From an uncultured Prevotella sp. (GTDB lineage: Bacteria; Bacteroidota; Bacteroidia; Bacteroidales; Bacteroidaceae): 64,000 nucleotides of DNA. The position numbers were made by a program, and so were the translations under genes. Below, piece after piece: positions 2,377-63,772 of the stretch. The DNA lies in contig OMXO01000004.1 of the NCBI GenBank assembly GCA_900315035.1, positions 6,129 to 70,128 of the forward strand, read 5' to 3'. The notes under the pieces are model-generated. The model did not search any database and was not told the origin of the DNA. It worked only from the letters and a program-made list of their open reading frames with translations. Position 1 is the stretch's first letter; each line of letters opens with the position of its first letter.

Positions 2377-2402
2377 CTTAGGTTCCGATGGTTATTTCTC
2401 GG

Positions 2403-7187: not shown

Positions 7188-7220
7188 AAAGTAAGTTCAC
7201 CAGAAAAATGTTGGAAATAA

Positions 7221-9307: not shown

Positions 9308-9331
9308 TGTCTGTAATTTCTTTGGACGGTG

Positions 9332-9339
9332 CAAAATTA
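9332..9339 (-). promoter_or_regulatory. -7 box TAnnTTTG
   Basis: Minus-strand TAatTTTG, 24 nt upstream of the ATG at 9307 (lipoprotein-glmM operon). Confidence 0.45.
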
Positions 9340-9371
9340 CGAAATATTTTGGAAATAGCGTCCAAATTTGC

Positions 9372-40387: not shown

Positions 40388-41439
40388 TGTCGGGATTTGC
40401 AGTCTATCGTTTGCCATATGCCGACTATGCCACTATCGTTGAGCAGACATCGGGTGAGCCTTCCGAGTTGTTGTCGTGCAAAGAACTGAACGAACGTCGC
40501 GGTTTCGTCGTAGCCCCCTTTGAGGTGAGAGCCGATCAGCCTATCCTACTCATACATCCAGATAGGGTAGAACAGTTACCCATCAAGTCGATTCCATATA
40601 GGGCGCAGGAGTCAGAGAACTTTAATCGCGATGCTGTCCCGAACTCCACTTATGCGATTGATTTTGCTAATTATCACGCACAACTTTCTCTTGGTGCATT
40701 CCGGAAAATAGTTCTTGCACGCTGTGCCGAGGAGACCGTAGAAGAGGCGGTAGATCCTATGGTATATTTCCATACAGCCTGCAACCTGTATCCCCGCATG
40801 TTTATCGCCCTCGTCTATACCGAGAGAAGTGGATTCTGGCTTACGGCCACTCCAGAAATATTGCTTGAAGGTGGCAATCATCATTGGCGCACCATCGCCT
40901 TGGCTGGCACCATGCGGCTCGAAGGTGAGAATCTCAAAGGCGAGGGCGAGTCTGTCAGTTGGAGTACAAAGAATATTCAGGAGCAGCGTTACGTTGCTAC
41001 TTATATTGCTGAGTGCCTCGAACAGTTTACCCGTGACTTCCACGAAGAAGGCCCCTATACCGTGCGGGCTGCCAATCTCGTACATCTGCGTAGCGACTTT
41101 AATTTCACCCTTCCTTCAGATAATCATATCGGAGACCTGTTGCAGCAACTTCATCCTACGCCTGCTGTCTGTGGTCTGCCCAAGCGTGAAGCCTTTCAGT
41201 TTATTGTGCGTAATGAGCATACGCCCCGTCGATATTACAGCGGGTTCATGGGCATGCTCGATTCGGAAGGCGATACTCACCTTTACGTTTCCTTGCGCTG
41301 TATGAACATCACGGATTACCGCTATCACCTCTATGCTGGAGGCGGTCTGCTAAAGGATAGTGTCCTCGAACAGGAATGGCAGGAGACAGAGGCGAAACTT
41401 GAAACAATGAGAAGATGTATAGCAGTAAAGAAAACGTAA
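40387..41439 (+). CDS. menF: Isochorismate synthase
   Basis: About 350 aa. Chorismate-binding motifs LHPTPAVCGLP and LYAGGGL. The ATG overlaps the upstream TGA (TGATG); an in-frame GTG lies at 40384. Confidence 0.8.
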   Translation: MSGFAVYRLPYADYATIVEQTSGEPSELLSCKELNERRGFVVAPFEVRADQPILLIHPDRVEQLPIKSIPYRAQESENFNRDAVPNSTYAIDFANYHAQLSLGAFRKIVLARCAEETVEEAVDPMVYFHTACNLYPRMFIALVYTERSGFWLTATPEILLEGGNHHWRTIALAGTMRLEGENLKGEGESVSWSTKNIQEQRYVATYIAECLEQFTRDFHEEGPYTVRAANLVHLRSDFNFTLPSDNHIGDLLQQLHPTPAVCGLPKREAFQFIVRNEHTPRRYYSGFMGMLDSEGDTHLYVSLRCMNITDYRYHLYAGGGLLKDSVLEQEWQETEAKLETMRRCIAVKKT

Positions 41440-42953: not shown

Positions 42954-42962
42954 TGATAGATT

Positions 42963-43817
42963 ATGTCAAGAGATTGGAAACAAATACGCGAATTTAAGGA
43001 GATTCTGTTTGAGTCTTATAATGGTATTGCCAAAATTACCATTAACCGTCCGCAATACCGTAATGCTTTTACCCCCAAGACTACATGGGAACTCTCGCAG
43101 GCCTTTTCGATGTGTCGCGAGATGCAAGACATTTCTGTAGTACTGTTGACGGGCGCGATGTCTGAGGTACCTGAGGGCAAGACTCTCGCCGATGTGAAAC
43201 ATGCGTTCTGCAGTGGTGGTGATATGCATGTGAAGGGGCGTGGCGGCTATGTCGATGAAGAAGGTGTGCCCCGTCTCAGTGTGCTCGATGTGCAGATGCA
43301 GATCCGTCGTCTGCCCAAGCCCGTTATTGCGATGGTGAATGGCTATGCTATCGGTGGTGGTCATGTACTCCACCTTGTCTGTGACCTCACTATAGCCTCC
43401 GAGAATGCCATCTTCGGACAGACGGGACCAAAGGTGGGCTCGTTCGATGCAGGCTTCGGCTCTTCGTATCTGGCTCGTATCGTAGGTCAGAAGAAAGCCC
43501 GCGAGATCTGGTTCCTCTGCCGACAATATACGGCCAAGGAGGCTGAGGAGATGGGGATGGTCAATAAGGTGGTGCCTATAGAGCGCCTCGAAGACGAGTG
43601 TGTCGAGTGGGCAGAAATCATGATGGAACGTTCTCTTCTTGCCTTGCGTATGATCAAGGCTGGACTCAATGCAGAACTCGATGGTCAGGCTGGTATTCAG
43701 GAACTCGCCGGCGACTGCACCATGCTCTACTATTTTCTCGATGAGGCTCAGGAGGGTGGAAAAGCCTTCCTCGAGAAACGCAAGCCCGACTTCAAGAAAT
43801 ATCCCAAACTGCCATGA
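42963..43817 (+). CDS. menB: 1,4-dihydroxy-2-naphthoyl-CoA synthase
   Basis: 284 aa. Crotonase fold with the MenB-typical [21 protein letters not shown]. Confidence 0.9.
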
Positions 43818-44833
43818 CCTATCAGATAGAGAAGCGTCTGCTTCATTTCAAACAGCCTGCAGGAACGTCGCGTGGAGTTTACACTACCAGGAAGATTTGG
43901 TTGGTTCACTTGTCTGATGGCGAAAAGTCTGGAATAGGAGAGTGTGCACCATTGCCTGATTTGAGTTGCGATGTGCTCAGCGATGAGATTTACGAGCAGA
44001 AACTCAACGACTTCTGTTGGGACCTCTGCCAGACGGGCAAGATTGATGTTGAGGCGGTCCGCGACTATCCCTCGATGCTCTTTGGCCTCGAGACAGCCTT
44101 ACTGAACCTTCGCAATGGTAATCTGCTTTTCGATACTCCTTTTTCACGAGGCGAAGAAGGTATCCCCATCAATGGTCTTGTCTGGATGGGGCGTTACGAC
44201 GAGATGCTTCAACGACTTGAAGAAAAGCTTGAGAAAGGCTTCCGTTGCGTCAAACTTAAGATAGGTGCCATCGACTTCGAGCAGGAACTCGATCTCGTTC
44301 GCCGCATTCGTTCTCGCTTCTCATTTCATGAAGTGGAGTTGCGCCTCGACGCTAATGGTGCTTTCCTTTACGAAGAGGCTCTCTATAAACTCGAACTTCT
44401 CTCGCAATATGCTATTCACTCAATAGAACAGCCTATCCGGCAGGGACAATGGGCCTATATGGCAGAACTTTGTCGGGAGTCGCCTCTGCCTATTGCGCTT
44501 GATGAAGAACTTATCGGTGTCAACGATCCTGAGATGAAAAGTCATATGCTCCATATCATCAAACCTCGCTATATCATCCTTAAGCCTTCGCTCCACGGTG
44601 GAATGACGGGTTGTAGGGGATGGATACAGACTGCTAAGGAACAGGGCATTGGCTCGTGGATTACTTCTGCCCTTGAGAGTAACATCGGCCTTAACGCCAT
44701 CGCACAGTTCGCCTCTGATGTCTATGGTTCTCAAATCTCTATGCCCCAGGGACTTGGCACAGGCCAACTCTTTACCGACAATATCCCCATGCCCCTTGAG
44801 ATTCGGGGCGATCAACTTTATATCGGGGCCTGA
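43814..44833 (+). CDS. menC: o-Succinylbenzoate synthase (enolase superfamily)
   Basis: 339 aa. Motifs [19 protein letters not shown] and ALDEEL. The start overlaps the menB stop. Confidence 0.8.
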
Positions 44834-44850
44834 CCCCAGCATCAAATTTT

Positions 44851-45837
44851 ATGATGTCTTTAGACGAATTTTTAGCAGAATGGCATAACGATTCTGAGTT
44901 TGTACATGTGCAGACCAGTGGTTCTACGGGTACTCCTAAGCCCATGATGATCGAGAAGCGGCGTATGCTCGCCTCTGCCCGCATCACTTGCGATTTTCTC
45001 GGTCTCCGTCCTGACGATAGTGCCTTGCTCTGTATGTCGCTCGATTATATCGCGGGTAAGATGATGGTGGTGCGCTCTCTTGAACGACAACTCCGACTCG
45101 TCACCGTTGCTCCCAGTGGTCATCCTCTCTCAAATCTCTCACCTCATAGCTCTTATTTCTCACCTCTTGTCTTTGCGGCAATGGTGCCTTTGCAGGTCTA
45201 TAATTCCCTCCAGGTGCCAGAAGAGTGTGAGCGTCTTCGTGAGATCCGTCATCTGATTATTGGCGGTGGTGCTATCGATGAGGCGATGGCTGCCCAACTA
45301 AAGACTTTTCCCCATGCCGTGTGGAGCACTTATGGTATGACCGAGACACTCTCTCACATAGCTCTTCGTCGCCTCAGTGGTCCCGAAGCCTCCGATTGGT
45401 ATACGCCCTTCCCTTCTGTCAACCTCAGTCTTTCTGTCGATGGCTGTCTGATCATCGAAGCTCCAGAGGTGTGCGAAGAGCGTCTTGTTACCAACGATAT
45501 TGCTGTCTTGTCGCCCGAAGGCCGTTTCCGTATCCTCGGACGTAAAGACAATATGATCTGTTCTGGAGGCATCAAAATTCAGGCTGAGGAGCTAGAACGC
45601 CAACTTCGTCCGCATCTGAGTGCTCCTTTCATGATCACCAAGCGTTCTGATGAGAAGTTTGGCGAGGTTGTCGTACTGCTTACTGAGGGCGACATCTCAG
45701 ATGCCCGAAACGTCTGTGAGCACATCCTCCCCAAATTCCATCATCCCCGAATCTATCTGCATGTTGCCCAGATTCCTCTGACGGCAACGGGCAAGCCTGC
45801 CCGCAAAACAGCCGAGACTATTGCAAAACTTTCGTAA
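44851..45837 (+). CDS. menE: o-Succinylbenzoate--CoA ligase (short AMP-binding enzyme)
   Basis: 328 aa. AMP-binding motifs TSGSTGTPK and YGMTET. Last gene of the men operon. Confidence 0.75.
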   Translation: MMSLDEFLAEWHNDSEFVHVQTSGSTGTPKPMMIEKRRMLASARITCDFLGLRPDDSALLCMSLDYIAGKMMVVRSLERQLRLVTVAPSGHPLSNLSPHSSYFSPLVFAAMVPLQVYNSLQVPEECERLREIRHLIIGGGAIDEAMAAQLKTFPHAVWSTYGMTETLSHIALRRLSGPEASDWYTPFPSVNLSLSVDGCLIIEAPEVCEERLVTNDIAVLSPEGRFRILGRKDNMICSGGIKIQAEELERQLRPHLSAPFMITKRSDEKFGEVVVLLTEGDISDARNVCEHILPKFHHPRIYLHVAQIPLTATGKPARKTAETIAKLS

Positions 45838-47126: not shown

Positions 47127-50090
47127 ATGAGTAGATCAATGAAAAAAGTAATTCTCATGACTGTCGCATTGTTAATGACAGTCACGATGTTCGCCCAGAG
47201 AACAGTATCGGGCAAGGTTGTTGAACAGGATACGCAAGAGGCTGTCATTCAAGCGACGGCTGCCATCCTCAGTGGTGAGAAAGTGGTAGCAAACGCGGTG
47301 ACGAATTCAAATGGTAGTTTCTCCTTCAAGGCGCCTCGCGATGGCAACTATACCCTTAAGATTACGTATGTAGGTTTCAAGACCTATAGTAAGAAAATCT
47401 CCATTAAGGACGGTAAGGATTATCATGCAGGCACCATTACGCTTGAGCCCGATGCTATCATGCTGAAGGGCGCCACAGTAACGGCTCATGCCTCGAAGGT
47501 AACCCTTAAGGCTGACACCTTTATGTATAACGCGAGCGCGTTCCGTACACCCGAAGGCTCGGTTGTAGAGGAACTCGTCAAGCGTCTGCCAGGTGCCGAG
47601 GTGAGCGACGACGGAACCATCAAGATTAATGGTAAAGAGGTCAAGAAAATCCTCGTCGATGGCAAGGAATTTATGACGGGCGACACGAAGACTGCCCTCC
47701 AGAACTTGCCTACGAACATCATCGAGCGCATCAAGGCTTATGACCAGCAGAGCGACCTTTCTCGTGTCAGCGGTATTCAGGACGGTGAGGAAGAAACGGT
47801 GCTCGACTTTGGTATCAAGCGTGGTATGAACAAAGGTATTATGGCCAATGTCGATCTCGCCGCAGGAACGAAGCATCGCTATTCTGGTCGAGGAATGGGA
47901 GCAGTGATGCAGAACAATACCCGCGTGATGCTTTTTGCCCGTGCTAACAATGTCAACGATATGGGCTTTCCAGGTGGCGGTGGTGGAGGCCGATGGGGTC
48001 AGCAGCGACAAGGATTGAACGCAGCCAAGATGCTTGGTGTTAACTTCAACTATGAGAATAAAGATAAACTGAAGTTTGATGGTAGCATACGCTGGAACCA
48101 TTCCGATGGAGACCAACTCTCTCGTCGCTCCAGTCAGCAAATCTATGATGCTACCACCACTGTGTTTAGCAACAGCCGTACTCAGAACTATACGCGCTCC
48201 AACAACTGGAACGGACAAATGCGTATCGAGTGGCAGCCCGACTCGATGACCAACATCCTGTTCCGTCCCACCTTCCGCTATAATTCAAACGACGGTCTCG
48301 ACCTCAGCGAAGAGGCCACTTTCGACAAAGATCCCTACCAGTCGGCCGTCAATCCGCTTGATGAACTCTATAACCTCATCAATCTTGGCATCGTTAAGAA
48401 CTCACGTGAGCAGAACAACGTCAGTTATAGCGACTCAAAAAATCTGGGTGGAATGCTCCAGTTCAACCGTAAACTCAGTTCTACAGGTCGTAACCTGACC
48501 CTTCAACTCAACGGTAACTGGAGCGAGGGAGAAAGTCGCTCGATCAACGATAGTTACGTGCGCTTCTTCCAGTTGGCAAAGGACTCCTCTTACAACACGC
48601 GCCGCTATAGTTTCACTCCGACAAAGAACTGGAACTATCGTGCCCGCATCACCTATAGCGAGCCCATCTTCCGTCAGGTATATCTGCAGTTTATCTACCA
48701 GTTCCGCTATGATTACACCAAGAACGACCGCAGTACTTACGACTTCAGCAATGTGCCTGCTATCCAAAATCTTGTCATCGGTAATCTCTGGGAGCCCGAA
48801 TATCGCTCTTGGGATGCCTATTTGCAGCCTTACCAGCCTATCGACCCCTATCGCGATAGCAACCTGAGTCGTTTCTCTGAATACAAAAACTATACACATA
48901 ATATCGAACTGATGTTGCGCGTTGTGCGCAAGACGTTTAATTTCAACGTCGGTGTGCGCCTTGTTCCTCAGAAGTCACACTTCCTGCAGGACTATCAGGG
49001 GCATCATGCCGATACCACACGTACGGTTACCAATATCACACCTACTCTCGACTTCCGCTGGAAGCGCTCCGAGGTCAGCCAGCTGCGCGTGCAGTATAAT
49101 GCCAACACCAGCCAGCCTTCGATGAACGACCTGCTCGATATCACCGACAATAGCGACCCACTGAACATCCGTAAGGGTAACCCTGGTCTGAAGCCCTCGT
49201 TCACTCAGAACCTGCGTATCTTCTACAACAACTATACCCAGCGCTATCAGCGCTCTATCGCCACATGGGCAGGCTTGAACACCACGAGCAATGCTATCAG
49301 CAACAAGGTAACGCTCGACAAGACTACTGGTGCCCGCATCACGAGACCTGAGAATATCAACGGCAACTGGAGCGGCTATGCAGGTATGGTCTTCAACACC
49401 GCCCTCGATTCGGCTGCCTTCTTCAATGTGAACAGTTTTACCAATGTGGGCTACAACCATTACGTGGGTTATGCTAGTGTCGATATCAGCAAAGAGTCGC
49501 AAAAGAGTGTTACTAATTCGCTCAACCTTAGCGAGCGACTGGCAGCCAGTTATCGTAACGAGTGGCTCGAGGTGGAACTCAACGGTTCCGTAGGTTATAC
49601 CCGCTCACGTAACGATCTGCAGGAGAATAATAACCTCGACACATGGCAGTTCTCCTATGGTGGCATGATTGGCGTTACTGCACCTTGGGGTACTGCTCTC
49701 ACTACTAATATGAACATGCAGAGTCGTCGCGGCTACAACGATGCTTCGCTGAATACCAACGAACTTATCTGGAATGCTCAGTTGTCGCAGAGTTTCCTCA
49801 AGGGTAAACCCCTTACCATTTCGCTGCAACTCTACGATATCCTTCATCAGCAGTCCACGCTTAGCAGCGTTATCTCGGCTATGGGTCGTACCGATACGGA
49901 GTATAACTCCATCACGAGTTATGCTATGCTTCATGTCATCTATCGCCTGAATCTCTTCGGAAGCTCCAAGAGTATCTTCGGCAACGGTGGTCCTGGAGGT
50001 CCTGGAGGACCTGGTGGTCGTCAGGGCGGTCGTCAGGGCGGTGGTCGCCCAGGTGGCTTCGGGGGTGGCGGAGGAGGTCGTCGCTGGTAA
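47127..50090 (+). CDS. Outer-membrane beta-barrel family protein with a CarboxypepD_reg-like N-terminus and a Gly-rich C-terminal tail
   Basis: 987 aa with a signal peptide. N-terminal RTVSGKVVEQDTQEAV...GNYTLKITYVGFK, a plug-like region (GTIKINGKEVKKILVDGKEF), and a long beta-rich body. The tail is GGPGGPGGPGGRQGGRQGGGRPGGFGGGGGGRRW. An alternative start lies at 47139. Confidence 0.75.
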   Translation: MSRSMKKVILMTVALLMTVTMFAQRTVSGKVVEQDTQEAVIQATAAILSGEKVVANAVTNSNGSFSFKAPRDGNYTLKITYVGFKTYSKKISIKDGKDYHAGTITLEPDAIMLKGATVTAHASKVTLKADTFMYNASAFRTPEGSVVEELVKRLPGAEVSDDGTIKINGKEVKKILVDGKEFMTGDTKTALQNLPTNIIERIKAYDQQSDLSRVSGIQDGEEETVLDFGIKRGMNKGIMANVDLAAGTKHRYSGRGMGAVMQNNTRVMLFARANNVNDMGFPGGGGGGRWGQQRQGLNAAKMLGVNFNYENKDKLKFDGSIRWNHSDGDQLSRRSSQQIYDATTTVFSNSRTQNYTRSNNWNGQMRIEWQPDSMTNILFRPTFRYNSNDGLDLSEEATFDKDPYQSAVNPLDELYNLINLGIVKNSREQNNVSYSDSKNLGGMLQFNRKLSSTGRNLTLQLNGNWSEGESRSINDSYVRFFQLAKDSSYNTRRYSFTPTKNWNYRARITYSEPIFRQVYLQFIYQFRYDYTKNDRSTYDFSNVPAIQNLVIGNLWEPEYRSWDAYLQPYQPIDPYRDSNLSRFSEYKNYTHNIELMLRVVRKTFNFNVGVRLVPQKSHFLQDYQGHHADTTRTVTNITPTLDFRWKRSEVSQLRVQYNANTSQPSMNDLLDITDNSDPLNIRKGNPGLKPSFTQNLRIFYNNYTQRYQRSIATWAGLNTTSNAISNKVTLDKTTGARITRPENINGNWSGYAGMVFNTALDSAAFFNVNSFTNVGYNHYVGYASVDISKESQKSVTNSLNLSERLAASYRNEWLEVELNGSVGYTRSRNDLQENNNLDTWQFSYGGMIGVTAPWGTALTTNMNMQSRRGYNDASLNTNELIWNAQLSQSFLKGKPLTISLQLYDILHQQSTLSSVISAMGRTDTEYNSITSYAMLHVIYRLNLFGSSKSIFGNGGPGGPGGPGGRQGGRQGGGRPGGFGGGGGGRRW

Positions 50091-50820: not shown

Positions 50821-51132
50821 ATGATAAAGGATTATGAAATAATAAGGGATGGTCCGGTACTGACCATTGTACTGGGCGAAGAATTGGCAACAGGCAATGC
50901 GCCGGCATTGATGGAAGAGGTGGCTGGATATAAAGAACAAGGGTTTGAGAAAGTGGTGTTCGACGCCACAAGACTGAGACACCTTTCGAGTAGTGGAGTG
51001 CGCGTTATCATTTTCTGCAAGCAGAGGTTGGGCAAGAGCCCCGAACTCGTGTTTGTGAACTGCGATAATGGTGTGCTTGACGTATTAGACATTGTCGGTC
51101 TCCGACCATTCATCACTTTTGTGGAACGGTAA
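50821..51132 (+). CDS. STAS-domain protein (anti-sigma-factor antagonist, SpoIIAA/RsbV-like)
   Basis: 103 aa. STAS-like layout with the phospho-loop context FDATRLRHLSSSGVRVIIF. Confidence 0.75.
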   Translation: MIKDYEIIRDGPVLTIVLGEELATGNAPALMEEVAGYKEQGFEKVVFDATRLRHLSSSGVRVIIFCKQRLGKSPELVFVNCDNGVLDVLDIVGLRPFITFVER

Positions 51133-51172
51133 GAGTGACTGATCAAGATAACTTGACTAAAATTGGAAAAAG

Positions 51173-52339
51173 ATGGCTGTAATTAAGATATTGAGCGTCG
51201 ATGATGAGGCGCCTATGGAGTTGCTGATGAAGCAGTATTTCAGGCACAAGATACGTAATGGCGAGTATGAATTTTACTTTGCACGTAACGGTGTGGAGGC
51301 ACTTGATCTCCTGAACAGCACACCCGGCATTGAAATCATACTCTTAGACATCAATATGCCAGAGATGGATGGTCTGACGTTGTTGGCCAAGGTGAACGAG
51401 ATGCACAATCCCTTGTTGCGCGTCATCATGGTGAGTGCTTATGGCGATTTGTCCAACATCCGGCAAGCCATGAACAATGGTGCCTTCGACTTTGTCATGA
51501 AGCCTATTGACATGAACGATCTCAGCGTGACTATCGAGAAGGCCATTGAACAAATCAACTATGTCTATGAGTCGCAGAGGGAACACGCACAATTGGAGTC
51601 GCTGAAGCAAGACTTGACGACAGCCAACAGTATTCAGCAGTATTTTCTGCCACAACAGTTCCCGCCTTTCCCCGAAGTCAGTGATCATCTGAATGTGTTT
51701 GCTTCGATGGAGGCAGCAAAGAATATCGGTGGCGATTTCTATGATTTTTTCCGGGTGGATGATGACCACATCGCTTTCGTCATCGGTGATGTCTGCGGAA
51801 AAGGTATTCCCGCAGCGCTGTTTATGGCATTCTGTTGTAGTACCATACGGTCAAAAGGTGTGCTCTTCAAGAGTGCTCGCGAAAGTATAACGGAATCGAA
51901 CCGTCTGTTGGCATCATACTCGGTAGATTGCATGTTCGTAACCGTGTTCTACGCCATTTACAACACGAAGACCGGACAGGTCGATTGTTGTAATGCCGGC
52001 CATAACCCGCCTCTTTTGCTACGGCGTGACGGTAGTGTGGAAGAGCTGCTCCGATTAGAGAATCCAATGCTGGGCATATTCGAGGAGGCAACGTTCAAGG
52101 AGCACTCCTTGCAAATGGAGCCAGGCGACACATTGGTGATGTTTACCGACGGTGTGACCGAGGCCTGGAATGCCCAAAAAGAGGAACTGGGCGTAGAACG
52201 GTTAAAGGCCATCGTTAGCAGTCAGACGGGCAAGGACAGTCGACAAGTGGTAGAAGCGGTGAAGGCAGCCATCAGCGACTTTGTTGGCGAAGAGGAACAG
52301 AGCGACGATATCACGATGCTGGTCATCAATAGAAAATAG
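51173..52339 (+). CDS. Response-regulator receiver fused to a PP2C (SpoIIE/RsbU-type) phosphatase
   Basis: 388 aa. REC residues VDDE, LLDINMPEMDG and VMKP. PP2C motifs GGDFYDFF, IGDVCGKGIPAALFM, FTDGVTEA and SDDITMLVI. Confidence 0.85.
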   Translation: MAVIKILSVDDEAPMELLMKQYFRHKIRNGEYEFYFARNGVEALDLLNSTPGIEIILLDINMPEMDGLTLLAKVNEMHNPLLRVIMVSAYGDLSNIRQAMNNGAFDFVMKPIDMNDLSVTIEKAIEQINYVYESQREHAQLESLKQDLTTANSIQQYFLPQQFPPFPEVSDHLNVFASMEAAKNIGGDFYDFFRVDDDHIAFVIGDVCGKGIPAALFMAFCCSTIRSKGVLFKSARESITESNRLLASYSVDCMFVTVFYAIYNTKTGQVDCCNAGHNPPLLLRRDGSVEELLRLENPMLGIFEEATFKEHSLQMEPGDTLVMFTDGVTEAWNAQKEELGVERLKAIVSSQTGKDSRQVVEAVKAAISDFVGEEEQSDDITMLVINRK

Positions 52340-52376: not shown

Positions 52377-53885
52377 ATGAGCGTGCTGTTGCTGTTGTTG
52401 GCGGGGGCAGTGGTCTTTATACGCCAGAGCGATGAGGCGCGCATTGGTGAACTGGAGTCGCAGATCGATGAACTGCGGCGGCAGGAGAAACAGTCGGATG
52501 TCGATCGTCGTGTGAGCCAACAGATGGAGGAGATAGCCTACGGTCAGCAGATTTTGGCCGAGGAGCGAAGCGATGAAGCCGTCCGCCAGTCGAAGATAGC
52601 CCAGGAGATGACTCTCCGGTCGGAGGCCGAGCGACAGAAAGCCATCGTGGCACAGGGAATTGCGGAAACGTCTGCCCAAGAGGCGAAGAATGCTTACCAC
52701 ATAGCCGAGCGTCGGCGTGTAGAGGCCGAGCATGCCAAATTAGTGGCCGACACCCTGAATTATATATCTCTTGGGCGAACATTAGGTTCGCAGGCGTATG
52801 CCATCTATCAGGCTGGCGATACAGAGATGGGCAACATGCTGGCCTATGCTGCTTATCGTTTCACCATCGATTACGGTGGCAATCTCTTTATACCCGCTGT
52901 GTTCCAGGCTCTCACGCAGTCGGCTGGCGGTCATCGCAGTTTTGGTGTCCACAATGGTAGCGTTTCCTGCATAAAGATCTCTCCTTACGACAATCATATC
53001 TTGACTGCGAGCACCTATGGCGAGATATTCGTTCACAACATGAATGGTACCCAGTTGCAGACCAAACGACTGATGAGCGACAAGAACTACTGCTTCCGCG
53101 ACGGCTATGCATCCAAGAATGGTAAAGACTATGTCATCAGTCATTCGGGACATCTGCTGGTTGCCGATGGTCATCAGATACGTGTCATCTATTTAGAGAA
53201 TATCGACCGTCCCTTCAGTCTGCAAGACATCCACGATGGTCGTCAACTCTTGATCGTCGGCGAGCATAGTGTCGGTCTGTTCGATTTGGCCACCGAGAAA
53301 GTCATCAGCACGCGTCGCCTCGATTTCCGTGTCGTCAGTGTTGGTAGGCGCGACAATAAACCTCTGCTTTTCGACAATCGCAGTCGCATGCATCTTGTCA
53401 GCAGTCTTGACGATGTGACTCGTGAGAAGGTCCCCGTTTCTGGCCAGGTCACGGCTTTTGTCAGGAACAACAGCAATCGGCTCTCAGCCTACGGAATGGC
53501 CGACGGTACCATTTGGCTGGTCGAGGGGAACGGCAAGGCAAATAAGTTGGTCGGACATCTCTCACAAGTGACGAGACTGGAGTTTGATGGATACCGGCTC
53601 TACTCTTCGAGTTATGACGGGAAACTGTTGTTCTGGATGGTCAATGATCCTCAGATAAAGCCCATCACTCTGTTCCAGGCCAGTAGTTGGCTCAACGATT
53701 TCACCTTCACGAAAGACAAGAGTTACATCTGGACGGGCGAATACAACGGCACAGTCTCCGAGTATCTTATTTCGCTGTCTAGGATTGCCCAACGCCTCCG
53801 CCAGAACGTGAAACGCAATTTCACACCAGAAGAGTGGAACTACTATGTGGGGGAGGGAATACCGTATCTGAAAATTAAAATGTAA
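52377..53885 (+). CDS. Membrane-anchored coiled-coil protein with a WD40-like beta-propeller
   Basis: The ATG at 52377 is preceded by AGGAGG; alternative in-frame starts are GTG 52347 and TTG 52281. TM segment SVLLLLLAGAVVFI, then about 110 aa of coiled coil (ELESQIDELRRQEKQ...). Propeller repeats follow, e.g. GHLSQVTRLEFDGYRLYSSSYDGKLLFW. Confidence 0.65.
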   Translation: MSVLLLLLAGAVVFIRQSDEARIGELESQIDELRRQEKQSDVDRRVSQQMEEIAYGQQILAEERSDEAVRQSKIAQEMTLRSEAERQKAIVAQGIAETSAQEAKNAYHIAERRRVEAEHAKLVADTLNYISLGRTLGSQAYAIYQAGDTEMGNMLAYAAYRFTIDYGGNLFIPAVFQALTQSAGGHRSFGVHNGSVSCIKISPYDNHILTASTYGEIFVHNMNGTQLQTKRLMSDKNYCFRDGYASKNGKDYVISHSGHLLVADGHQIRVIYLENIDRPFSLQDIHDGRQLLIVGEHSVGLFDLATEKVISTRRLDFRVVSVGRRDNKPLLFDNRSRMHLVSSLDDVTREKVPVSGQVTAFVRNNSNRLSAYGMADGTIWLVEGNGKANKLVGHLSQVTRLEFDGYRLYSSSYDGKLLFWMVNDPQIKPITLFQASSWLNDFTFTKDKSYIWTGEYNGTVSEYLISLSRIAQRLRQNVKRNFTPEEWNYYVGEGIPYLKIKM

Positions 53886-53903: not shown

Positions 53904-56615
53904 ATGGAGAAGCAGAACTATCTTCAACGGATCATAGGGATGGTAAAATGGTTTTTACCTTCTTTCCCTCTTGCCCTTTTACCTTTTTTCCTTTTTACCT
54001 TTTTACCTTTACCAGCGTTGGCCCAGGGCCTTCCGCTTATCCGTAATTACACAGCAGCAGAATATGGTGGGCATAACAATTGCTACGATATAGAGATTGG
54101 CGTTGACGGTACTGTGTTTGTGGCTAACTTCGAAGGACTACTCTATTACGACCGTGCAAGGTGGCGCATTATCCATACACCCGATATCAGTCGGATCACG
54201 GTGGTCTATCGTGACAGCAAGAACACGATTTGGGTTGGCGGCTATAACCACTTGTTCCGTTTGCAGGAACGGGCCAATGGCGACTTGTTCTTGCAACAGG
54301 TGGGGCGCGACGGTCAGTTCAAGGGCGAGGTGATGGAGATCTTCGAGGATGGTGGTTCGTTGCTGTTCGTGGCCAGCGACAATAATGTCTATGAAGTCAA
54401 CGGCAGTACCATATCCTTCAAAGAGCAGACGAGTGCAAAATTCAGCCCTGGTGTCGCTTCCAGCATCGTGTCGTTGGGAGCCGTGAAAGAGGGAAGTGCA
54501 GAAGTCATTCTTGATGACATTACTCAAACGGAGAATCTGGACGGCGGGCTTCAGGTCAAGGTCAAGAAGAATTCAGGACTGATCATTGCCGATGCTCAAG
54601 GTCATGAACTCTATACCATTACAGAGGATAACGGCCTGTGTTCCAATCAAGTGGCCTATGTGGCCTACGATGGTCATGGATTGCTCTGGGGCGCAACGTT
54701 GCATGGTGTCTTCTCTATTGAGATCCCTTCACTTTTCAGCTATTTCATGGACAAGGATGGTCTCGATGGCGAGGTACATGCCATCACGGCTTTCGACGGC
54801 AAGATGTATGTGGGCACCACGAACGGCCTTTACAGCATCGCTATTCCCGAGCCAAGCATGCCTGTCCGTAGCCTTTCGTATCAATGCAAGCGTATAGCCG
54901 AAATCAAGAATATATGTTGGACTCTGGCTCCAAGTCGTGACGAACTGTTCGCTGCCACGTCCAGCGGCATCTACAAGATTGCACGAGGCGGCAAGGTAAG
55001 CAGGCTGACTTCTAATTCCACTACCGCCTTGCTAGTTGATGGCGACAAGGTCTATGCCGGAGAACCCGATGGTGTCTATGTCTATCTGCCAGACTTCCTG
55101 AAGCGTACCAAGGTCAACGATATCCCGTTGGCTACCGATATCCGGAAAAATGCTCAAGGCGGTCTCTGGAGCAAGAATGTTCACGGACAGACTGTCGGCG
55201 ATGATCCGGGCATGATACGTGAACCCCTTGCCGATCTGCCTGCTCACCTGAAGAATCCGCTCAGCGACATCGAGGTGACGGCCCAGTATCGTTATGGCAG
55301 TCAGACGTGGATAGGCGGTGATGAGATTCTTGTTGTCGTCGATACCGGTCAGAAAGACCTTGCCCGACTTTCCGATTGTCGTACCGTCCATTTCCGTTCC
55401 ATCATCATGGGCAACGACAGTGTGCTATGGGGTGGCTATGGGGAAATGCCCCAAGAACTATCCAAGTTAGCCGACGATGAGCGCCATCTGCATTTCTTCT
55501 ATGCACTCGACTATACTCCGCTGACGGGTAAGACGCTTTATCGCTATCGCCTGAACAACGACAAATGGAGTGCATGGAGCGAGAAGCAGAGCGTGGAATT
55601 TCTGAATCTGCCCTATGGGTCGTTTACCCTTAGCGTACAGGCCAGACTGGCTAACGGCGAACTGTCGGAGATCGCATCCGTCGATTTTTCCATTGCCTAC
55701 CCATTGTTCATGCGCTGGTATATGGTGGTCATCTACTTCATTCTCTTGGCCTGCCTGGTCTATCTGCTGTTCCGTTATCGTGCCGATCTCCGTCAAGCGC
55801 AACAGGAACTGATACGTCAGGAGAAAATGGCGTCGGTGGGTAAACTGACCGAGGGACTCATTGACCGACTCCTGAACCCGATGAACTATATCATCAACTT
55901 CTCGAAGATGTCAAACGACCTGCTGAAAGACTTCAAGGAGGCTATCGGGCACAAGACAGAGGCGAAGACCGATGGTCAGGTCGTTATCAGCGACAACGAC
56001 TATGAAGACATGCTCGACATCGCTGATATGCTGACCGAGAACCTGCGTAACGTTGACGATTATGGCCAGAACGCCACCCGCATGCTCAAGGCGATGGAGG
56101 AGATGCTGAAAGACCGCCAAGGCGGCTATACCGATATGGATCTCCTGCCTGTGCTTCATCAGAACGAGGAGATGTTCGCCAAATATTATGTCAACGAGAA
56201 AGAAAAGCATCATATCCGTGCAACATTTACTTTGCCCGACAGTGCGATGCCGTTGAACGGAAATCCCGCTTTGCTCAGCAAGGTCTTTATGAATATCCTG
56301 GGCAATGCGGTCTATGCCGTAGTCAGGAAGGCAGAGAGAGCGAAAGGGTTCGTCCCCGAGATATCCCTTGCCGCCACTGTTGTCGATGGACAGTACGTCG
56401 TGGCGGTTCGCGACAACGGCATCGGTATTGACGAGAAACAACTCGACAAGATCTTCAATCCTTTCTTCACCACCAAAACCACCAGCGAGGCTGCAGGCAT
56501 AGGACTCTACCTGAGTCGCGAAATCATACAGAACCACGGCGGCGACATCAGCGTGGAGAGTCGCAAGGACGATTACACAGAGTTTACCATTAGCCTTCCA
56601 AAGGTCAAAAAGTAA
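53904..56615 (+). CDS. HTCS-like periplasmic sensor (Reg_prop repeats + Y_Y_Y) fused to a histidine-kinase-like ATPase core lacking the phospho-acceptor His
   Basis: 903 aa with a signal/TM N-terminus. Propeller repeats include NTIWVGGYNHLFRL, GLLWGATLHGVFSI, KMYVGTTNGLYSI and ELFAATSSGIYKI. Y_Y_Y region is LHFFYALDYTPLTGKTLYRYRLNNDKWSAW, followed by a TM segment (MVVIYFILLACLVYLLF). The H-box-equivalent reads EKMASVGKLTEGLIDRLLNP. N-box NILGNAVYAV, G1 DNGIGI, F FNPFFTTK, G2 GIGLYLS. Confidence 0.8.
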   Translation: MEKQNYLQRIIGMVKWFLPSFPLALLPFFLFTFLPLPALAQGLPLIRNYTAAEYGGHNNCYDIEIGVDGTVFVANFEGLLYYDRARWRIIHTPDISRITVVYRDSKNTIWVGGYNHLFRLQERANGDLFLQQVGRDGQFKGEVMEIFEDGGSLLFVASDNNVYEVNGSTISFKEQTSAKFSPGVASSIVSLGAVKEGSAEVILDDITQTENLDGGLQVKVKKNSGLIIADAQGHELYTITEDNGLCSNQVAYVAYDGHGLLWGATLHGVFSIEIPSLFSYFMDKDGLDGEVHAITAFDGKMYVGTTNGLYSIAIPEPSMPVRSLSYQCKRIAEIKNICWTLAPSRDELFAATSSGIYKIARGGKVSRLTSNSTTALLVDGDKVYAGEPDGVYVYLPDFLKRTKVNDIPLATDIRKNAQGGLWSKNVHGQTVGDDPGMIREPLADLPAHLKNPLSDIEVTAQYRYGSQTWIGGDEILVVVDTGQKDLARLSDCRTVHFRSIIMGNDSVLWGGYGEMPQELSKLADDERHLHFFYALDYTPLTGKTLYRYRLNNDKWSAWSEKQSVEFLNLPYGSFTLSVQARLANGELSEIASVDFSIAYPLFMRWYMVVIYFILLACLVYLLFRYRADLRQAQQELIRQEKMASVGKLTEGLIDRLLNPMNYIINFSKMSNDLLKDFKEAIGHKTEAKTDGQVVISDNDYEDMLDIADMLTENLRNVDDYGQNATRMLKAMEEMLKDRQGGYTDMDLLPVLHQNEEMFAKYYVNEKEKHHIRATFTLPDSAMPLNGNPALLSKVFMNILGNAVYAVVRKAERAKGFVPEISLAATVVDGQYVVAVRDNGIGIDEKQLDKIFNPFFTTKTTSEAAGIGLYLSREIIQNHGGDISVESRKDDYTEFTISLPKVKK

Positions 56616-56620
56616 AAAGT

Positions 56621-59110
56621 ATGGAGCAGAAGAAATATCTATTTATCATCAGTTTCCTTGTTTGTCTTCTTGCTTTGATGCCTTTATCCGCAGGAGCGCA
56701 GACTGATACGGAGATGCGCGATATCTACACGCAGGCAGAGAGCGATTACCAGATAGGCCGAATCGAACAGGCTCGCGATGCCCTGTTGCAACATCTCACC
56801 GACTTCCATGGGAACCAGCGCCAGAGTGCGCTCCGCCTCATTGCCCTTTGCTATCTGGCACGTTTCGATATGGAGAAGACGGAGCACTATGCCTCGCTGA
56901 TATTGCAGGATAACCCTTACTACAGCCCGTCGTCGCTTGATCCCGCGATCTTTGCCGATATCGTGAACAGCATCAAGTCTGGTATGACCGCTACCATTAC
57001 CACCGCTTCCAGTCAGACAGAGAGTCTGTTAGAGGTGCCTGTTCCCTCAGCGCTCATTACCGCCGAAATGATCAGGAACAGCGGAGCCCGAAATCTGCAG
57101 GAAGTGCTTGCTACCTATGTGCCTGGCATGAACATTGTCGATTGTAACGACGATATCAACATCGCCATGCGCGGCATCTACAGTTATACGCAGGAAAAGA
57201 TTCTCATCATGCTCAATGGGCATCGTCTGAACAGTTATGCTACCAACACCGCTGCGCCCGATTTCAGCATCTCCTTGGAGAATGTGAAACAGATAGAAGT
57301 GCTGCGTGGTCCCGCCTCCTCACTTTATGGCGATGTGGCTCTTACCGGTGTGGTGAATATCATCACCAAACAAGGAGCCGATGTGGACGGCATCAAGGCG
57401 AAAGTTGCGGCAGGTAATCACGGGCAGATCAAGGCCGACGCCATCCTCGGCAAGCGTTATTTCGACATCGACCTGCTCGTCTGGGGAAGTGCCTATCGCA
57501 ACAGTGGCGATCGGCCTATCGGCAATCATCCCTCCTATGACTTAGGCCTGCAACTGGGTTATAAAGGTCTGCAACTCATGTACGACACCCATTTCTCACA
57601 GGTTGCCGCCCCGTTTACCATGGGTTGTCCTGCCATGCCATACAACCGTGAGCGCTATATTACCCAAAATGCTTACGGTCCCAGTTTTGCTACCAGTTCA
57701 CGACATCTCGACCTGAGTTACAACCATCAGATGGGCAACTTGAATCTGAAGTATGCCGCCACCTACGACAAGTCGGATATGACGCGCTATCAGGTGCTTA
57801 GCGACGAGCCGTCACACATATTGTCTTGGACGCTCCCGTTGCCTCTTTACATGATACAAGTGTATGACTCTTTGGGAGGACTCTCCCGATATGTCAACGG
57901 CCAGGATCAGCACTTCGGCTTCCAGCTGAAGGGCAACTATGCCTATACACTGAGTGCCCGACAAAAGGGCCATATCAGTTTCGGAGCCGAGTATGGTCAC
58001 TTCAAACTCGATGACATGCGCTATCAGATGGGCTATAATTTCGTAGAGACATTCGCCGGGGATGTGAAGACGCGCGGAATCGGAAAGGGTAGAGAGAACA
58101 GTGCCAATGTCTATCTGCAACTGAAGCATCAGTGGGATTTCTCTCTCTTCTCCTATCCCTCTTCACTGCTTCTGAATGCCGGTATGCGTTTCGACTACAA
58201 GAACCACTATGACGATACTCAGGTGCGTGAACTGTCGCCTCGAGTGGCCCTCATCCTGTTGCGCCCCAAGTGGAACGTCAGGCTGAGTTATTCCAAGTCG
58301 TTTGTCGATGTACCATATCTCTATCGCAAATCCAATGCCCTCGCTGCATTGATTCGTGAGCGCAAAAACGATGAAAGCCTCTCGCCTGAGCGCGCTCACT
58401 CCTTCCAACTCTCATTTGCAGGACTAAACTGGGTGAAAGGGCTGAATTTCGAAGTCAACGGTTTCTACAATCATGCCTCAGACCTCATTATGACCGATAT
58501 TCTCACCTACAAGAACACGAGCCAGAACAGAACCGGCGGACTGGAGTTGATGGCTGGTTACAGACGGCCGAGGCTCACCACTCACTGGAACCTGACCTGG
58601 ACGCACACTTTCAAGTCGACTATCGTACCCATAGAACTCTACGAGAAACTGATGCCCTATTATTCTTATAACATCGATGACAACAATAATACCCCGGTCA
58701 TCATGTCGAATCTGGTAGTCGGTTGGCAGGCTGCGTCTCGGTTGCGACTTCATGCCCATGTGCTCTTCGAGAGCAGTCAGACATCGTATAACATCGATCT
58801 TGAGCAATTTGCCAAGACTCGCACCCAATACTTCTTATACGATCTTTACTACCCCATTCATGACATGGAGAAGCTGGCCGCTATCTACTGGGCTAGCGCT
58901 GTAGATGCTGCGCAGAAGACTGTTAGCCGTCATGAGATGTCTGCCCGCTGCATCCTGAACGTCGGTGGCGAATATACGTTCGGGCCCGTCACCATCGGGC
59001 TGGACATCCACAATCTTCTGGGTACTCGCTATAACCGTAGTGGCATGAACACGATCCTGATTCCCCAGCAAGGACGTTGGCTCATGGGCAGCATTGCCGT
59101 CAGTTTATAG
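56621..59110 (+). CDS. TonB-dependent-receptor-like outer-membrane protein with an N-terminal TPR-like extension
   Basis: 829 aa with a signal peptide. About 100 aa of helical TPR-like region (YQIGRIEQARDALLQHL...ALRLIALCYLARFDMEKTEHYASLIL). Plug-like region (VPVPSALITAEMIRNSGARNLQEVLATYVPGM...EVLRGPASSLYGDVALTGVVNIITKQG), then a long beta-barrel. Confidence 0.7.
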   Translation: MEQKKYLFIISFLVCLLALMPLSAGAQTDTEMRDIYTQAESDYQIGRIEQARDALLQHLTDFHGNQRQSALRLIALCYLARFDMEKTEHYASLILQDNPYYSPSSLDPAIFADIVNSIKSGMTATITTASSQTESLLEVPVPSALITAEMIRNSGARNLQEVLATYVPGMNIVDCNDDINIAMRGIYSYTQEKILIMLNGHRLNSYATNTAAPDFSISLENVKQIEVLRGPASSLYGDVALTGVVNIITKQGADVDGIKAKVAAGNHGQIKADAILGKRYFDIDLLVWGSAYRNSGDRPIGNHPSYDLGLQLGYKGLQLMYDTHFSQVAAPFTMGCPAMPYNRERYITQNAYGPSFATSSRHLDLSYNHQMGNLNLKYAATYDKSDMTRYQVLSDEPSHILSWTLPLPLYMIQVYDSLGGLSRYVNGQDQHFGFQLKGNYAYTLSARQKGHISFGAEYGHFKLDDMRYQMGYNFVETFAGDVKTRGIGKGRENSANVYLQLKHQWDFSLFSYPSSLLLNAGMRFDYKNHYDDTQVRELSPRVALILLRPKWNVRLSYSKSFVDVPYLYRKSNALAALIRERKNDESLSPERAHSFQLSFAGLNWVKGLNFEVNGFYNHASDLIMTDILTYKNTSQNRTGGLELMAGYRRPRLTTHWNLTWTHTFKSTIVPIELYEKLMPYYSYNIDDNNNTPVIMSNLVVGWQAASRLRLHAHVLFESSQTSYNIDLEQFAKTRTQYFLYDLYYPIHDMEKLAAIYWASAVDAAQKTVSRHEMSARCILNVGGEYTFGPVTIGLDIHNLLGTRYNRSGMNTILIPQQGRWLMGSIAVSL

Positions 59111-62446: not shown

Positions 62447-63772
62447 TTATTGCTCGTCGTTGTTGCTTGGCTTCTCGTCGATGGGCTTTTCGCCATAGGG
62501 CTTTTCGCCATAAGGCATCCGCCTTCTGGGCTGTCTGGGCGCTCTCGGTTCACTGAACTCTCTGCGCTCTCTGGGCTCTCTGAACTCTCTGCGATCCCTT
62601 GGCTCACCGAAATCTCTGCGCTCTCTGGGCTCTCTGAATTCTCTGCGCTCCCTTGGCTCACCGAACTCTCTGCGCTCTCTCGGTTCTCTGAACTCTCTGC
62701 GCTCTCTTGGTTCTCCGAATTCTCTGCGCTCTCTCGGTTCTCTGAATTCTCTGCGCTCTCTCGGCTCCCTGAACTCTCTTGGTTCTCTCGGCTCTTTCTG
62801 CTCCCGTGGCTCTTTTGGCTCTCTTGGTTCCTTGGGCTCTTTAGGCTCCATGAATTTCAGGAGTTTCCCAGATTTGATAAGGTTGCGGCAGATAGTGTCG
62901 AGCATGCCGTTGATATAACTGCCGCTCTTGCGGGTAGAGTAGATTTTAGCCAGTTCTACATACTCGTTGATGCTGACGCTCACAGGGATGTTCGGGAAGG
63001 TCATGATCTCGGCGATGGCCAGTTGCATGAGGATGATATCCATGAAGGCCAGACGGGAGAAGTCCCAGTTGCGTGAGGTCTCGCTCATGTAGCGCTGATA
63101 ATGGTCGGAATTGAGGATGGCAGCGCGGAACAACTTACGTGCAAACTCCTGTTCCTCCTCGCTCGCCCATTCGGGCAGGAGCTCTTCCTTGCTACCGTTC
63201 TGCTCCTTGAAACGCTTGATGGTCTTCATGACGAAGGTATCGACAATATCCTTATCGTCGTTCCAGTAGAGGCTCTGTTCCTCGAGCATGCTGTCGATGT
63301 CGTCATTGTTCATGATGAAGGCCTTATAGAGATGACGCCAGAGGTCGCGGTCGGCCTCGTAACTGTCGTTCTTATCGTTCATGTATGTCTGATAGATCTC
63401 GCTGCTCTCGATTCTGTCGAGTAATTGTCCGACAATCACGTCGTTGTCGGCCCAGTTGAACTTCTGACTGCTCATGAAGTCCTGGAGCATCTTGTTTTCG
63501 CCCAGTTGTAGGGCGAAACGGTTGAGTACAAACTTCTGTGAAGGTTGGGGCGTGCCTTCGCGGAGAGCGCGCGACTGTAAGACCTCCATACGGCGGCTAG
63601 CCTCTTTAGTGATGGCTATAATGAGCGCCAGCAGATAGTTGTAGAGGTCATAAGACTTTGACAGACTGAAGAAAAGTTCCTTTTCAGCCGAGTCGATGTT
63701 CTTGTTACCGTTTTGATAGTAAGCGTAGGTTAACTGAACAATCTTGATTCTGATAATTTCCCTATTGATCAT
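62447..63772 (-). CDS. nusB: Transcription antitermination factor NusB with a ~135-aa repetitive Arg/Glu/Pro-rich C-terminal extension
   Basis: 441 aa. N-terminus MINREIIRIKIVQLTYAYYQNGNKNIDSAEKELFFSL resembles Bacteroidales NusB as I recall it. The C-terminal tail is made of REF(R/G)EPRER nonapeptide repeats. Confidence 0.75.
   Translation of the reverse strand: MINREIIRIKIVQLTYAYYQNGNKNIDSAEKELFFSLSKSYDLYNYLLALIIAITKEASRRMEVLQSRALREGTPQPSQKFVLNRFALQLGENKMLQDFMSSQKFNWADNDVIVGQLLDRIESSEIYQTYMNDKNDSYEADRDLWRHLYKAFIMNNDDIDSMLEEQSLYWNDDKDIVDTFVMKTIKRFKEQNGSKEELLPEWASEEEQEFARKLFRAAILNSDHYQRYMSETSRNWDFSRLAFMDIILMQLAIAEIMTFPNIPVSVSINEYVELAKIYSTRKSGSYINGMLDTICRNLIKSGKLLKFMEPKEPKEPREPKEPREQKEPREPREFREPRERREFREPRERREFGEPRERREFREPRERREFGEPRERREFREPRERRDFGEPRDRREFREPRERREFSEPRAPRQPRRRMPYGEKPYGEKPIDEKPSNNDEQ
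62528..62850. repeat. 27-bp tandem repeat (8 good units at 62555-62770 plus degenerate flanks), grading into a 9-bp periodicity, inside nusB
   Basis: Units start at 62555, 62582, 62609, 62636, 62663, 62690, 62717 and 62744, with consensus GAAYTCTCTGCGCTCTCTBGGYTCTCT. On the minus strand they encode REF(R/G)EPRER. The region 62790-62850 encodes the (E/K)P(K/R)E triplet-like repeat. Confidence 0.9.

Follow-up and report, generated by a model that had tools for sequence, protein, structure and literature searches.

Among the sensory proteins of bacteria, histidine kinases are the main class, and only a few conserved versions that lack the phospho-accepting histidine, such as DivL, are understood. 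What can a sensor kinase still do once this histidine is gone? The question is raised by a gene in a 64,000-nucleotide stretch of DNA (the window) from contig OMXO01000004.1 of an uncultured Prevotella sp. (GenBank assembly GCA_900315035.1). Open reading frame (ORF) 53904..56615(+) encodes a 903-residue membrane sensor kinase homologue of the Asp-Arg type: these two residues occupy the positions where histidine kinases have His-Glu. What is new is a putative pseudokinase with a family-wide invariant exchange of His-Glu for Asp-Arg, normally paired with a sensor-less canonical mini-kinase and wired to a partner switch. Sequence comparisons suggest that the gene is not a broken one and that the Asp-Arg protein probably serves as a sensing partner without kinase activity.

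Asp654 and Arg655 occupy the positions of the acceptor His and the catalytic Glu

From N to C terminus, the protein comprises a hydrophobic segment, a periplasmic Reg_prop/Y_Y_Y region (the Reg_prop match in Pfam is weak), a second transmembrane segment, a DHp-like hairpin and a CA (ATP-binding) domain (Table 1). The original prediction, made from the sequence without database searches, had pointed to an Asp codon in the acceptor position and to the presence of the N, G1, F and G2 boxes, and translation bears out both statements. In the frame of the ORF, positions 55863-55865 read GAC (Asp654) and positions 55866-55868 read CGA (Arg655). The boxes are found at residues 797 (N, NILGNAVYAV), 837 (G1, DNGIGI), 851 (F, FNPFFTTK) and 865 (G2, GIGLYLS), and the CA domain is intact, with N801, D837-x-G-x-G, the F box and G865-x-G867 all in place. 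Pfam matched the 903-residue protein with HATPase_c and HATPase_c_5, not with HATPase_c_2. No match to Pfam HisKA was obtained for it even at E<=0.1, and no NCBIfam model reached its cut-off.

Whether Asp654 truly sits on the acceptor His was checked by four independent comparisons of the register. With phmmer against PDB sequences, GLIDRLLNP was aligned with GVAHEIRNP of ZraS (9jfj) and with ALAHELNQP of a FixL chimera, and with BLASTP against the canonical mini-kinase of Prevotella sp. E2-28 (see below) the D stood over H and the R over E. Alignment of the Asp-Arg profile with the profile of the His-Glu sister family by hhalign gave 100% probability and put the D column on the H column. Finally, an AlphaFold2 model of the kinase core (mean pLDDT, the predicted local distance difference test, 78.8, and above 90 in the CA domain) consisted of a helical hairpin and a CA domain, with helix 1 at residues 626-682 and helix 2 at residues 697-739 (3-59 and 74-116 of the 280-residue core); its best Foldseek matches were ZraS (E=3e-16) and HK853, and the DivL structure 4q20 was also matched. 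A profile alignment and a structural prediction of the hairpin were among the checks proposed with the original prediction, and both agree with it. The modelled order of a DHp hairpin followed by a GHKL CA domain is that of a class-I (HisKA-type) kinase, and the ATP boxes fit this class as well; the acceptor His, the acid at the next position (H+1) and a match to the Pfam HisKA profile are missing.

No other histidine offers itself as a substitute. The nearest one, H683 (AIGHKTE), lies 29 residues downstream of Asp654; it had correctly been placed outside the canonical register, although the distance had been given as about 25 residues. Position 683 is His in only 3 of the 121 orthologues described below, so H683 is not an alternative acceptor, and a shifted register is ruled out on the same ground. 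The Asp-Arg and His-Glu families share a conserved His in helix 2, but throughout the Prevotella clade of the window this position is Tyr720, and the 121-sequence alignment contains no other conserved His in the DHp of this clade. Because the acceptor His and the catalytic Glu are replaced by Asp-Arg, autophosphorylation on the canonical His should be impossible for this protein, as had been foreseen.

Conservation and distribution of the Asp-Arg pair

The 120 best database homologues, all from Prevotella and 65-97% identical, retain G-L-I-D-R. With the query included, D654, R655, N658, Y662, N801, D837, G839, G841, G865 and G867 are found in 121 of 121 sequences. When the kinase core was run with HMMER against 1.84 billion cluster representatives, 1,863 matches at E<1e-30 were obtained, and the 136 best of these that covered the whole core, clustered at <=50% identity, served for a comparison of classes. 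Among these 136 best representatives of the 1,863, 96 had Asp-Arg and 40 had His-Glu, with no other pair occurring, and the Asp-Arg pair was unvarying in all 96 distant members of the clade. When the H-box columns were masked, a neighbour-joining tree still set the 96 Asp-Arg sequences apart from the 40 His-Glu sequences, and the nearest neighbour belonged to the same class for 136 of 136 sequences. The persistence of this separation under masking argues that the substitution was a single old event and not decay. On this comparison, the exchange of His-Glu for Asp-Arg is one ancient event that has become fixed in a monophyletic family, and the Asp-Arg clade is the sister of a canonical "AHE" kinase family. 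A strain-specific mutation, which had been named as an outcome that would speak against the original prediction, is ruled out by the 121 orthologues and the 96 distant representatives taken together, an invariance well in excess of what chance would give.

The sister family, with the signature 'AHE...NPLNF', occurs in Bacteroidota and other phyla, includes the mini-kinase, and is 30-40% identical to the Asp-Arg family over the DHp and CA core. Common to the two are the H-box framework EK(M/L)AS(L/V)G.LT.G....NP(L/M)N..NNF, the helix-2 motif and the ATP boxes. They differ in the change of H to D, of E to R and, after NPLN, of F to Y; in addition, the Asp-Arg family has (Lys/Gln/Glu)-Gly-(Leu/Ile)-(Ile/Val) where the His-Glu family has Ala-Gly-Ile-Ala, and the ATP-lid glycines of the latter (GxGTGLGL) are partly missing from the former. 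The resulting Asp-Arg signature of the H-box is LTxG(L/I)(I/V)DR(I/L)xNP(L/M)NY(I/V). Asn658, at the H+4 position, is unvarying in both families. In the hairpin loop, a 7-residue insertion sets the representative of the window's Prevotella clade apart from the other family members sampled.

With one genome examined per GTDB species, Asp-Arg members were found in Prevotella/Prevotellaceae, other Bacteroidales, Tannerellaceae, Dyadobacter, Hymenobacter and Spirosoma, and the more remote matches, from many phyla, were all His-Glu. Database names extend the family to Parabacteroides and Nibrella, and the sequence of the window is present nearly verbatim in bovine gut metagenomes. We are thus dealing with a large and sharply bounded family of Bacteroidota that includes abundant gut and rumen Prevotella as well as Parabacteroides. 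Its members go by public names such as 'histidine kinase', 'GHKL domain-containing protein', 'ATP-binding protein' and 'HAMP domain-containing sensor histidine kinase', and counts of 'histidine kinases' in Bacteroidota genomes would include proteins unable to act as such. In the full-text literature, which was covered incompletely, we found DivL, plant ethylene receptors and other partner switches, and no His-less Asp-Arg family; the family is apparently undescribed.

A canonical mini-kinase adjoins the Asp-Arg gene in 21 loci

The loci of relatives are referred to by L numbers. In 21 of them (L008-L014, L016-L026, L086, L087 and L089), the gene directly 3' of the Asp-Arg gene encodes a mini-kinase of about 275 residues, and the two genes either overlap or are separated by a gap of up to about 50 nt. 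The mini-kinase consists of DHp and CA only, its Pfam HisKA match ranging from weak to clear. His-Glu is present in all mini-kinases, and no membrane or sensor domain was detected in those examined. An RsbU-like REC-PP2C protein (REC-SpoIIE) is encoded in the same cluster in nearly all 21 mini-kinase loci. The original prediction had held that the neighbouring REC domain would need another kinase, and the canonical His-Glu kinase directly downstream strongly supports it. As predicted from these sequences, the Asp-Arg protein is the only component of the usual operon that has a membrane/periplasmic sensor, and the adjacent canonical kinase is without one.

An origin of the Asp-Arg gene and the mini-kinase gene as tandem duplicates, which would make them sister clades, is unsupported; a rough neighbour-joining tree places the mini-kinases inside the His-Glu family. 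Asp-Arg forms without a sensor exist as well: in Hymenobacter rubidus (L024), a gene at 8855-9778 that codes for an additional Asp-Arg protein of 307 residues separates the gene of the large Asp-Arg sensor from that of the canonical mini-kinase.

STAS and a dedicated RsbW-type kinase are often also encoded in Asp-Arg operons. The compact operon of Parabacteroides sp. 52 (L087) has the order STAS - HATPase_c_2 (RsbW type) - Asp-Arg - mini-kinase - REC-PP2C, and its Asp-Arg protein has 376 residues with two predicted membrane segments; short Asp-Arg forms look membrane-anchored from their hydrophobic N-terminal stretches, as read by eye. The order in Prevotellaceae is REC-PP2C - membrane WD40 protein - Asp-Arg sensor - mini-kinase - Plug/TonB-type receptor, and L089, which has an abundant 903-residue orthologue (67% identity), displays the full set: STAS - RsbW - REC-PP2C - WD40 - Asp-Arg - mini-kinase - Plug - CitMHS. 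A complete module of STAS, RsbW and PP2C is present in L001, L003, L087, L089 and L090, and in each of these STAS-bearing relatives the RsbW-type HATPase_c_2 kinase adjoins STAS. In L016 and L007 the RsbW gene was found, with STAS unconfirmed, and near many Asp-Arg loci STAS was not seen at all (seed search, E<=1e-3). Besides the window, the mini-kinase is missing from L001, L003, L090, L004/L005, L006 and L007. The helix-2 changes K716N and H720Y were considered as a mark of mini-kinase loss and ruled out, L089 having both Tyr720 and a mini-kinase. Nonribosomal peptide synthetase genes (Condensation, AMP-binding, PP-binding) adjoin the operon in L003 (1-4620), L086 (16075-21588) and L001 (4197-4502), and not in the window.

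The operon of the window

Compared with these relatives, the operon of the window, which belongs to a rumen Prevotella lineage, is a reduced derivative as judged from its sequence: the mini-kinase and RsbW genes would have been deleted and CitMHS left as a remnant, with REC-PP2C, WD40, Asp-Arg and the TonB-type receptor kept. From the window and from L002, a metagenomic relative of about 99% DNA identity with the same layout, the RsbW-type gene between STAS and REC-PP2C is cleanly absent; the order STAS-HATPase_c_2-REC/SpoIIE is seen in L001 (RsbW gene at 6791-7192), L003, L089 and L090. A phmmer scan of all ORFs of >=50 residues in the 64-kb window found no mini-kinase and no RsbW-like ORF, and matched only the Asp-Arg gene itself and a canonical kinase at 625-2391(-). 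Within the window the partner-switching module is thus incomplete, with STAS and REC-PP2C present and an RsbW-type ORF absent. The only other kinase-like ORF of the window, at 625-2391(-), codes for a canonical sensor histidine kinase that is unrelated (Pfam HisKA E=2.5e-14, HATPase_c E=3.7e-23). The CitMHS remnant retains residues 1-68, 348-360 (13 residues) and 543-601 of a protein of about 600 residues that is intact in relatives. The STAS protein of the window retains a Ser-rich HLSSSG phosphorylation motif, as read from the sequence. In L002, a 42-bp in-frame deletion in the STAS gene (around 1995-2000, corresponding to 50923-50964 of the window) takes out 14 residues just before the Ser motif, which suggests that the STAS arm is decaying in the lineage of the window.

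The REC domain retains the DD pair, the acceptor D, the Ser/Thr and the K in the window and in all relatives examined (aligned with CheY and the relatives). Ratios of nonsynonymous to synonymous substitution rates (dN/dS) between the window and L002 were 0.15 for the Asp-Arg gene, 0.13 for REC-PP2C, 0.14 for WD40 and 0.31 for Plug, and the Asp-Arg gene gave 0.18 between the window and L001. By this measure, the Asp-Arg gene is under purifying selection in lineages that are without an adjacent mini-kinase. The TonB-dependent-receptor-like protein has an N-terminal extension of about 130 residues, and in Prevotellaceae the gene immediately 5' of the Asp-Arg gene is always that of the WD40 protein. 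The WD40 and TonB-dependent-receptor-like genes flank the Asp-Arg gene in all Prevotellaceae loci, which hints at a trans-envelope sensing complex.

A possible sensing half of a split two-component system

In the reading that we favour, and to which we give somewhat less than an even chance, a two-component system is split between two proteins, with the Asp-Arg protein as its sensing half, dead as a kinase; it would act by removing or blocking the phosphate on REC and would thereby feed a partner switch. More broadly, the protein is most likely a nucleotide-dependent phosphatase of phosphorylated REC, a docking partner or a regulator of the mini-kinase. The mini-kinase or another donor would phosphorylate the REC domain of REC-PP2C. 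The Asp-Arg sensor would dock on the same REC domain via its conserved H-box helix and, in response to a periplasmic signal and to bound nucleotide, would remove or block its phosphate. The level of phosphorylated REC would then set the activity of PP2C, and hence the state of the STAS/RsbW partner switch. Dedicated receiver phosphatases place an acid one helical turn away from an amide (DxxxQ in CheZ and NarX, ExxN in CheX); Asp654-x-x-x-Asn658 has this spacing and may have the geometry of these DxxxQ/ExxN enzymes. In HisKA kinases, kinase activity alone depends on the H+1 acid, and phosphatase activity alone on the Thr/Asn at H+4 (PMC3510030). In EnvZ and HK853, the phosphatase reaction is stimulated when nucleotide is bound to the CA domain (PMC7005713), which would explain why the ATP boxes have been retained. 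That the sensor is maintained where the mini-kinase is gone favours an activity on the receiver or on another substrate over a role directed at the mini-kinase only, and hence an activity that is independent of the adjacent mini-kinase.

Several points weigh against this reading. In HK853 the His itself has a part in the phosphatase chemistry (PMC7005713), and a phosphatase without it would need the Asp to assume this role. Conservation of Asn658 and the H-box helix is just as high in the canonical sister family; that they have been retained is therefore compatible with phosphatase or docking roles and not specific to these. Likewise, the invariant ATP boxes could equally mean phosphotransfer to another substrate. 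Moreover, the link with REC-PP2C is not universal, since no REC-PP2C gene lies near the Asp-Arg gene in L004/L005, and L028 and L088, two members of the HAMP type, are orphans.

An alternative that we regard as possible, if rather unlikely, is that the protein is a pseudokinase in the manner of DivL-CckA or RetS-GacS, which would form a heteromer with the mini-kinase (possibly a DHp heterodimer) and regulate it, either by switching its autophosphorylation on or off or by using its own CA domain to phosphorylate the partner His in trans. The adjacency of the two genes in the 21 loci fits this idea as well as it fits the split system; the input domain missing from the mini-kinase is found in the Asp-Arg protein, the DHp helices of the two proteins are very similar, phosphorylation in trans would account for the intact ATP site, and control of one kinase by another has precedents in DivL (PMC4211667) and GacS/RetS (PMC5992135). 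The option of a pseudokinase or scaffold, raised in the original prediction, is consistent with the comparative data. The regulator of the mini-kinase sits less well with the purifying selection on the gene where no mini-kinase adjoins it (window, L001, L003, L090, L004/L005) and with the orphan HAMP forms, and the closest relatives of the Asp-Arg clade are not the mini-kinases. The original prediction had further proposed a Ser/Thr-directed GHKL kinase acting on the adjacent STAS protein. In the broader form considered here, this would be a Ser/Thr- (or Tyr-) directed kinase of STAS, REC-PP2C, WD40 or the mini-kinase, comparable to RsbW/SpoIIAB or mitochondrial PDK/BCKDK. Relatives of histidine kinases that lack the His and phosphorylate Ser do exist, as in PDK/BCKDK and some plant ethylene receptors, every ATP-binding box of the Asp-Arg protein is invariant, and the operon of the window has a STAS with a Ser motif and no RsbW gene. 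We nevertheless consider this improbable, and for STAS poorly supported: the STAS of L001, L003, L087, L089 and L090 has its own HATPase_c_2 kinase alongside, many Asp-Arg loci have no STAS in sight at the threshold given above, the Asp-Arg pair predates the loss of RsbW in the lineage of the window by the full depth of the family, the STAS of the nearly identical L002 is damaged by its deletion, and it would be left unexplained why Asp-Arg-x-x-Asn is strictly invariant on the DHp helix.

The invariance of the Asp-Arg pair would be accounted for if the CA domain phosphorylated Asp654 itself, giving an acyl phosphate stabilised by Arg655, from which the phosphate would pass to the REC Asp in a two-component transfer free of His. 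No exception to Asp and Arg is seen at the acceptor and H+1 positions, the ATP site is intact, the transfer potential of acyl phosphates is sufficient, and REC is catalytically complete even in lineages without an adjacent mini-kinase, that of the window included. Such an aspartyl-phosphate kinase would be a long shot nonetheless, as it has no precedent among GHKL kinases, the general base Glu is gone, the side chain of Asp is shorter than that of His so that an altered geometry would be needed to reach the gamma-phosphate, and the canonical mini-kinase in the 21 loci makes a second phosphodonor needless. Least credible of all is that the gene is a non-functional relic, decaying together with its operon. 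The missing RsbW and mini-kinase genes, the CitMHS remnant and the STAS deletion of L002 would suit it, but the ORF is whole at 903 residues, the dN/dS values of 0.15-0.18 speak of constraint, and Asp-Arg and the ATP boxes are invariant across several orders of Bacteroidota; the relic is thus largely refuted by the conservation data.

If the split into sensor and kinase holds, it would mean that sensing and phosphodonor roles are divisible between two paralogues, and it would show how two-component signalling and partner switching are wired together in Bacteroidota. The Asp-Arg family is also a natural system for separating the kinase from the phosphatase chemistry of the DHp helix. Were Asp654 instead a phospho-acceptor, a histidine-free 'Asp-to-Asp' two-component phosphotransfer would extend across a whole Bacteroidota family, and the catalytically complete REC of the lineages without a mini-kinase would be explained.

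Comparison with known systems

In Caulobacter, DivL employs its kinase core as a docking or sensing surface for a response regulator and works together with the true histidine kinase CckA (PMC4211667). Like DivL, the Asp-Arg protein has the full DHp and CA fold without a phosphorylatable His, and is conserved, not decayed. However, the His position of DivL is occupied by Tyr and its Glu is kept, whereas in the Asp-Arg family both residues are replaced. DivL is alphaproteobacterial, carries PAS domains and is encoded apart from its kinase; the Asp-Arg family is found in Bacteroidota and has a Reg_prop/Y_Y_Y sensor, a sensor-less mini-kinase of the same operon as putative partner and REC-PP2C as putative output. 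No specific sequence relation links the two beyond the common kinase fold. By sequence, the Asp-Arg protein is therefore pseudo-histidine-kinase-like in the way of DivL, yet it stands outside the DivL family. In RetS-GacS, as in other multikinase networks, a second kinase or its regulator is modulated by a sensor-kinase homologue that can do without its own phosphorylation site (PMC5992135). RetS differs in keeping its His, in having receiver domains and in the location of the genes in separate operons, and an Asp-Arg heteromer is hypothetical.

The output side of the Asp-Arg operons resembles RsbU/RsbV/RsbW and HsbR/HsbA, in that STAS, a HATPase_c_2 kinase and REC-PP2C occur together. In the HptB-HsbR-HsbA system of Pseudomonas, the PP2C acting on a STAS protein is under the control of a two-component input (PMC6482189). 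The input of the Asp-Arg operons would be a His-less sensor with a mini-kinase, not a hybrid kinase with Hpt, and the RsbW-type kinase is missing in the window. The Asp-Arg protein is itself not of the RsbW/SpoIIAB type, which has about 140 residues and a single HATPase_c_2 domain without DHp, as opposed to 903 residues with a DHp-like hairpin. With the hybrid two-component systems of Bacteroides it shares the periplasmic beta-propeller/Y_Y_Y sensor, the transmembrane helix and the kinase core; unlike these, it has no acceptor His, no C-terminal receiver and no AraC-type domain, and ends at CA.

Features of the locus and other genes of the window

Table 1. Features of the Asp-Arg gene and its operon, in window coordinates.
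Feature	Position	Strand	Basis
CitMHS/TrkA_C transporter remnant, in-frame, 179 residues	50256..50795	+	Pfam, comparison with relative
STAS protein, anti-sigma-antagonist type, 103 residues	50821..51132	+	Pfam STAS, E=5e-11
40-bp spacer, site of a 133-152-residue RsbW-type (HATPase_c_2) gene in relatives	51133..51172	.	comparison
REC-PP2C (RsbU-like) response regulator	51173..52339	+	Pfam Response_reg and SpoIIE
Membrane-anchored WD40 beta-propeller protein	52377..53885	+	Pfam; mechanical ORF start 52281, likely start near 52377
903-residue Asp-Arg sensor kinase homologue	53904..56615	+	ORF list, Pfam, 120 orthologues, dN/dS
Y_Y_Y domain, residues 542-597, end of periplasmic sensor region	55527..55694	+	Pfam PF07495, E=2.6e-7
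Second transmembrane segment, residues 603-623, MRWYMVVIYFILLACLVYLLF	55710..55772	+	inferred from hydrophobicity of translation
DHp-like helical hairpin, residues 626-739	55779..56120	+	AlphaFold2 model, Foldseek matches
H-box equivalent, codon 640 onward, EKMASVGKLTEGLIDRLLNPMNYI	55821..55892	+	translation
Asp654-Arg655 (GAC CGA), at phospho-acceptor His and catalytic Glu positions	55863..55868	+	pairwise and profile alignments
Asn658, H+4 position	55875..55877	+	alignments; role per PMC3510030
CA/ATP-binding domain, HATPase_c, residues 787-900	56262..56603	+	Pfam, E=7e-22
5-bp junction of Asp-Arg and Plug genes; site of the mini-kinase in 21 loci	56616..56620	.	comparison
TonB-dependent-receptor-like protein, Plug domain	56621..59110	+	Pfam; conserved downstream partner in Prevotellaceae

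Upstream of the operon, five genes at 40384-45837(+) resemble those of menaquinone biosynthesis when read by eye (isochorismate synthase, MenD, MenB, MenC and MenE types). They are followed at 47127-50090(+) by the gene of an outer-membrane beta-barrel protein with CarboxypepD_reg and OMP_b-brl_3 domains and a Gly/Arg-rich end (GGPGGPGGPGGRQGGRQGGGRPGGFGGGGGGRRW). On the other side, 62447-63772(-) encodes a NusB-family protein whose long C-terminal tail consists of charged repeats in tandem (PREPKEP / REFREPRER units), and the opposite strand of this gene carries a spurious repeat-rich ORF.

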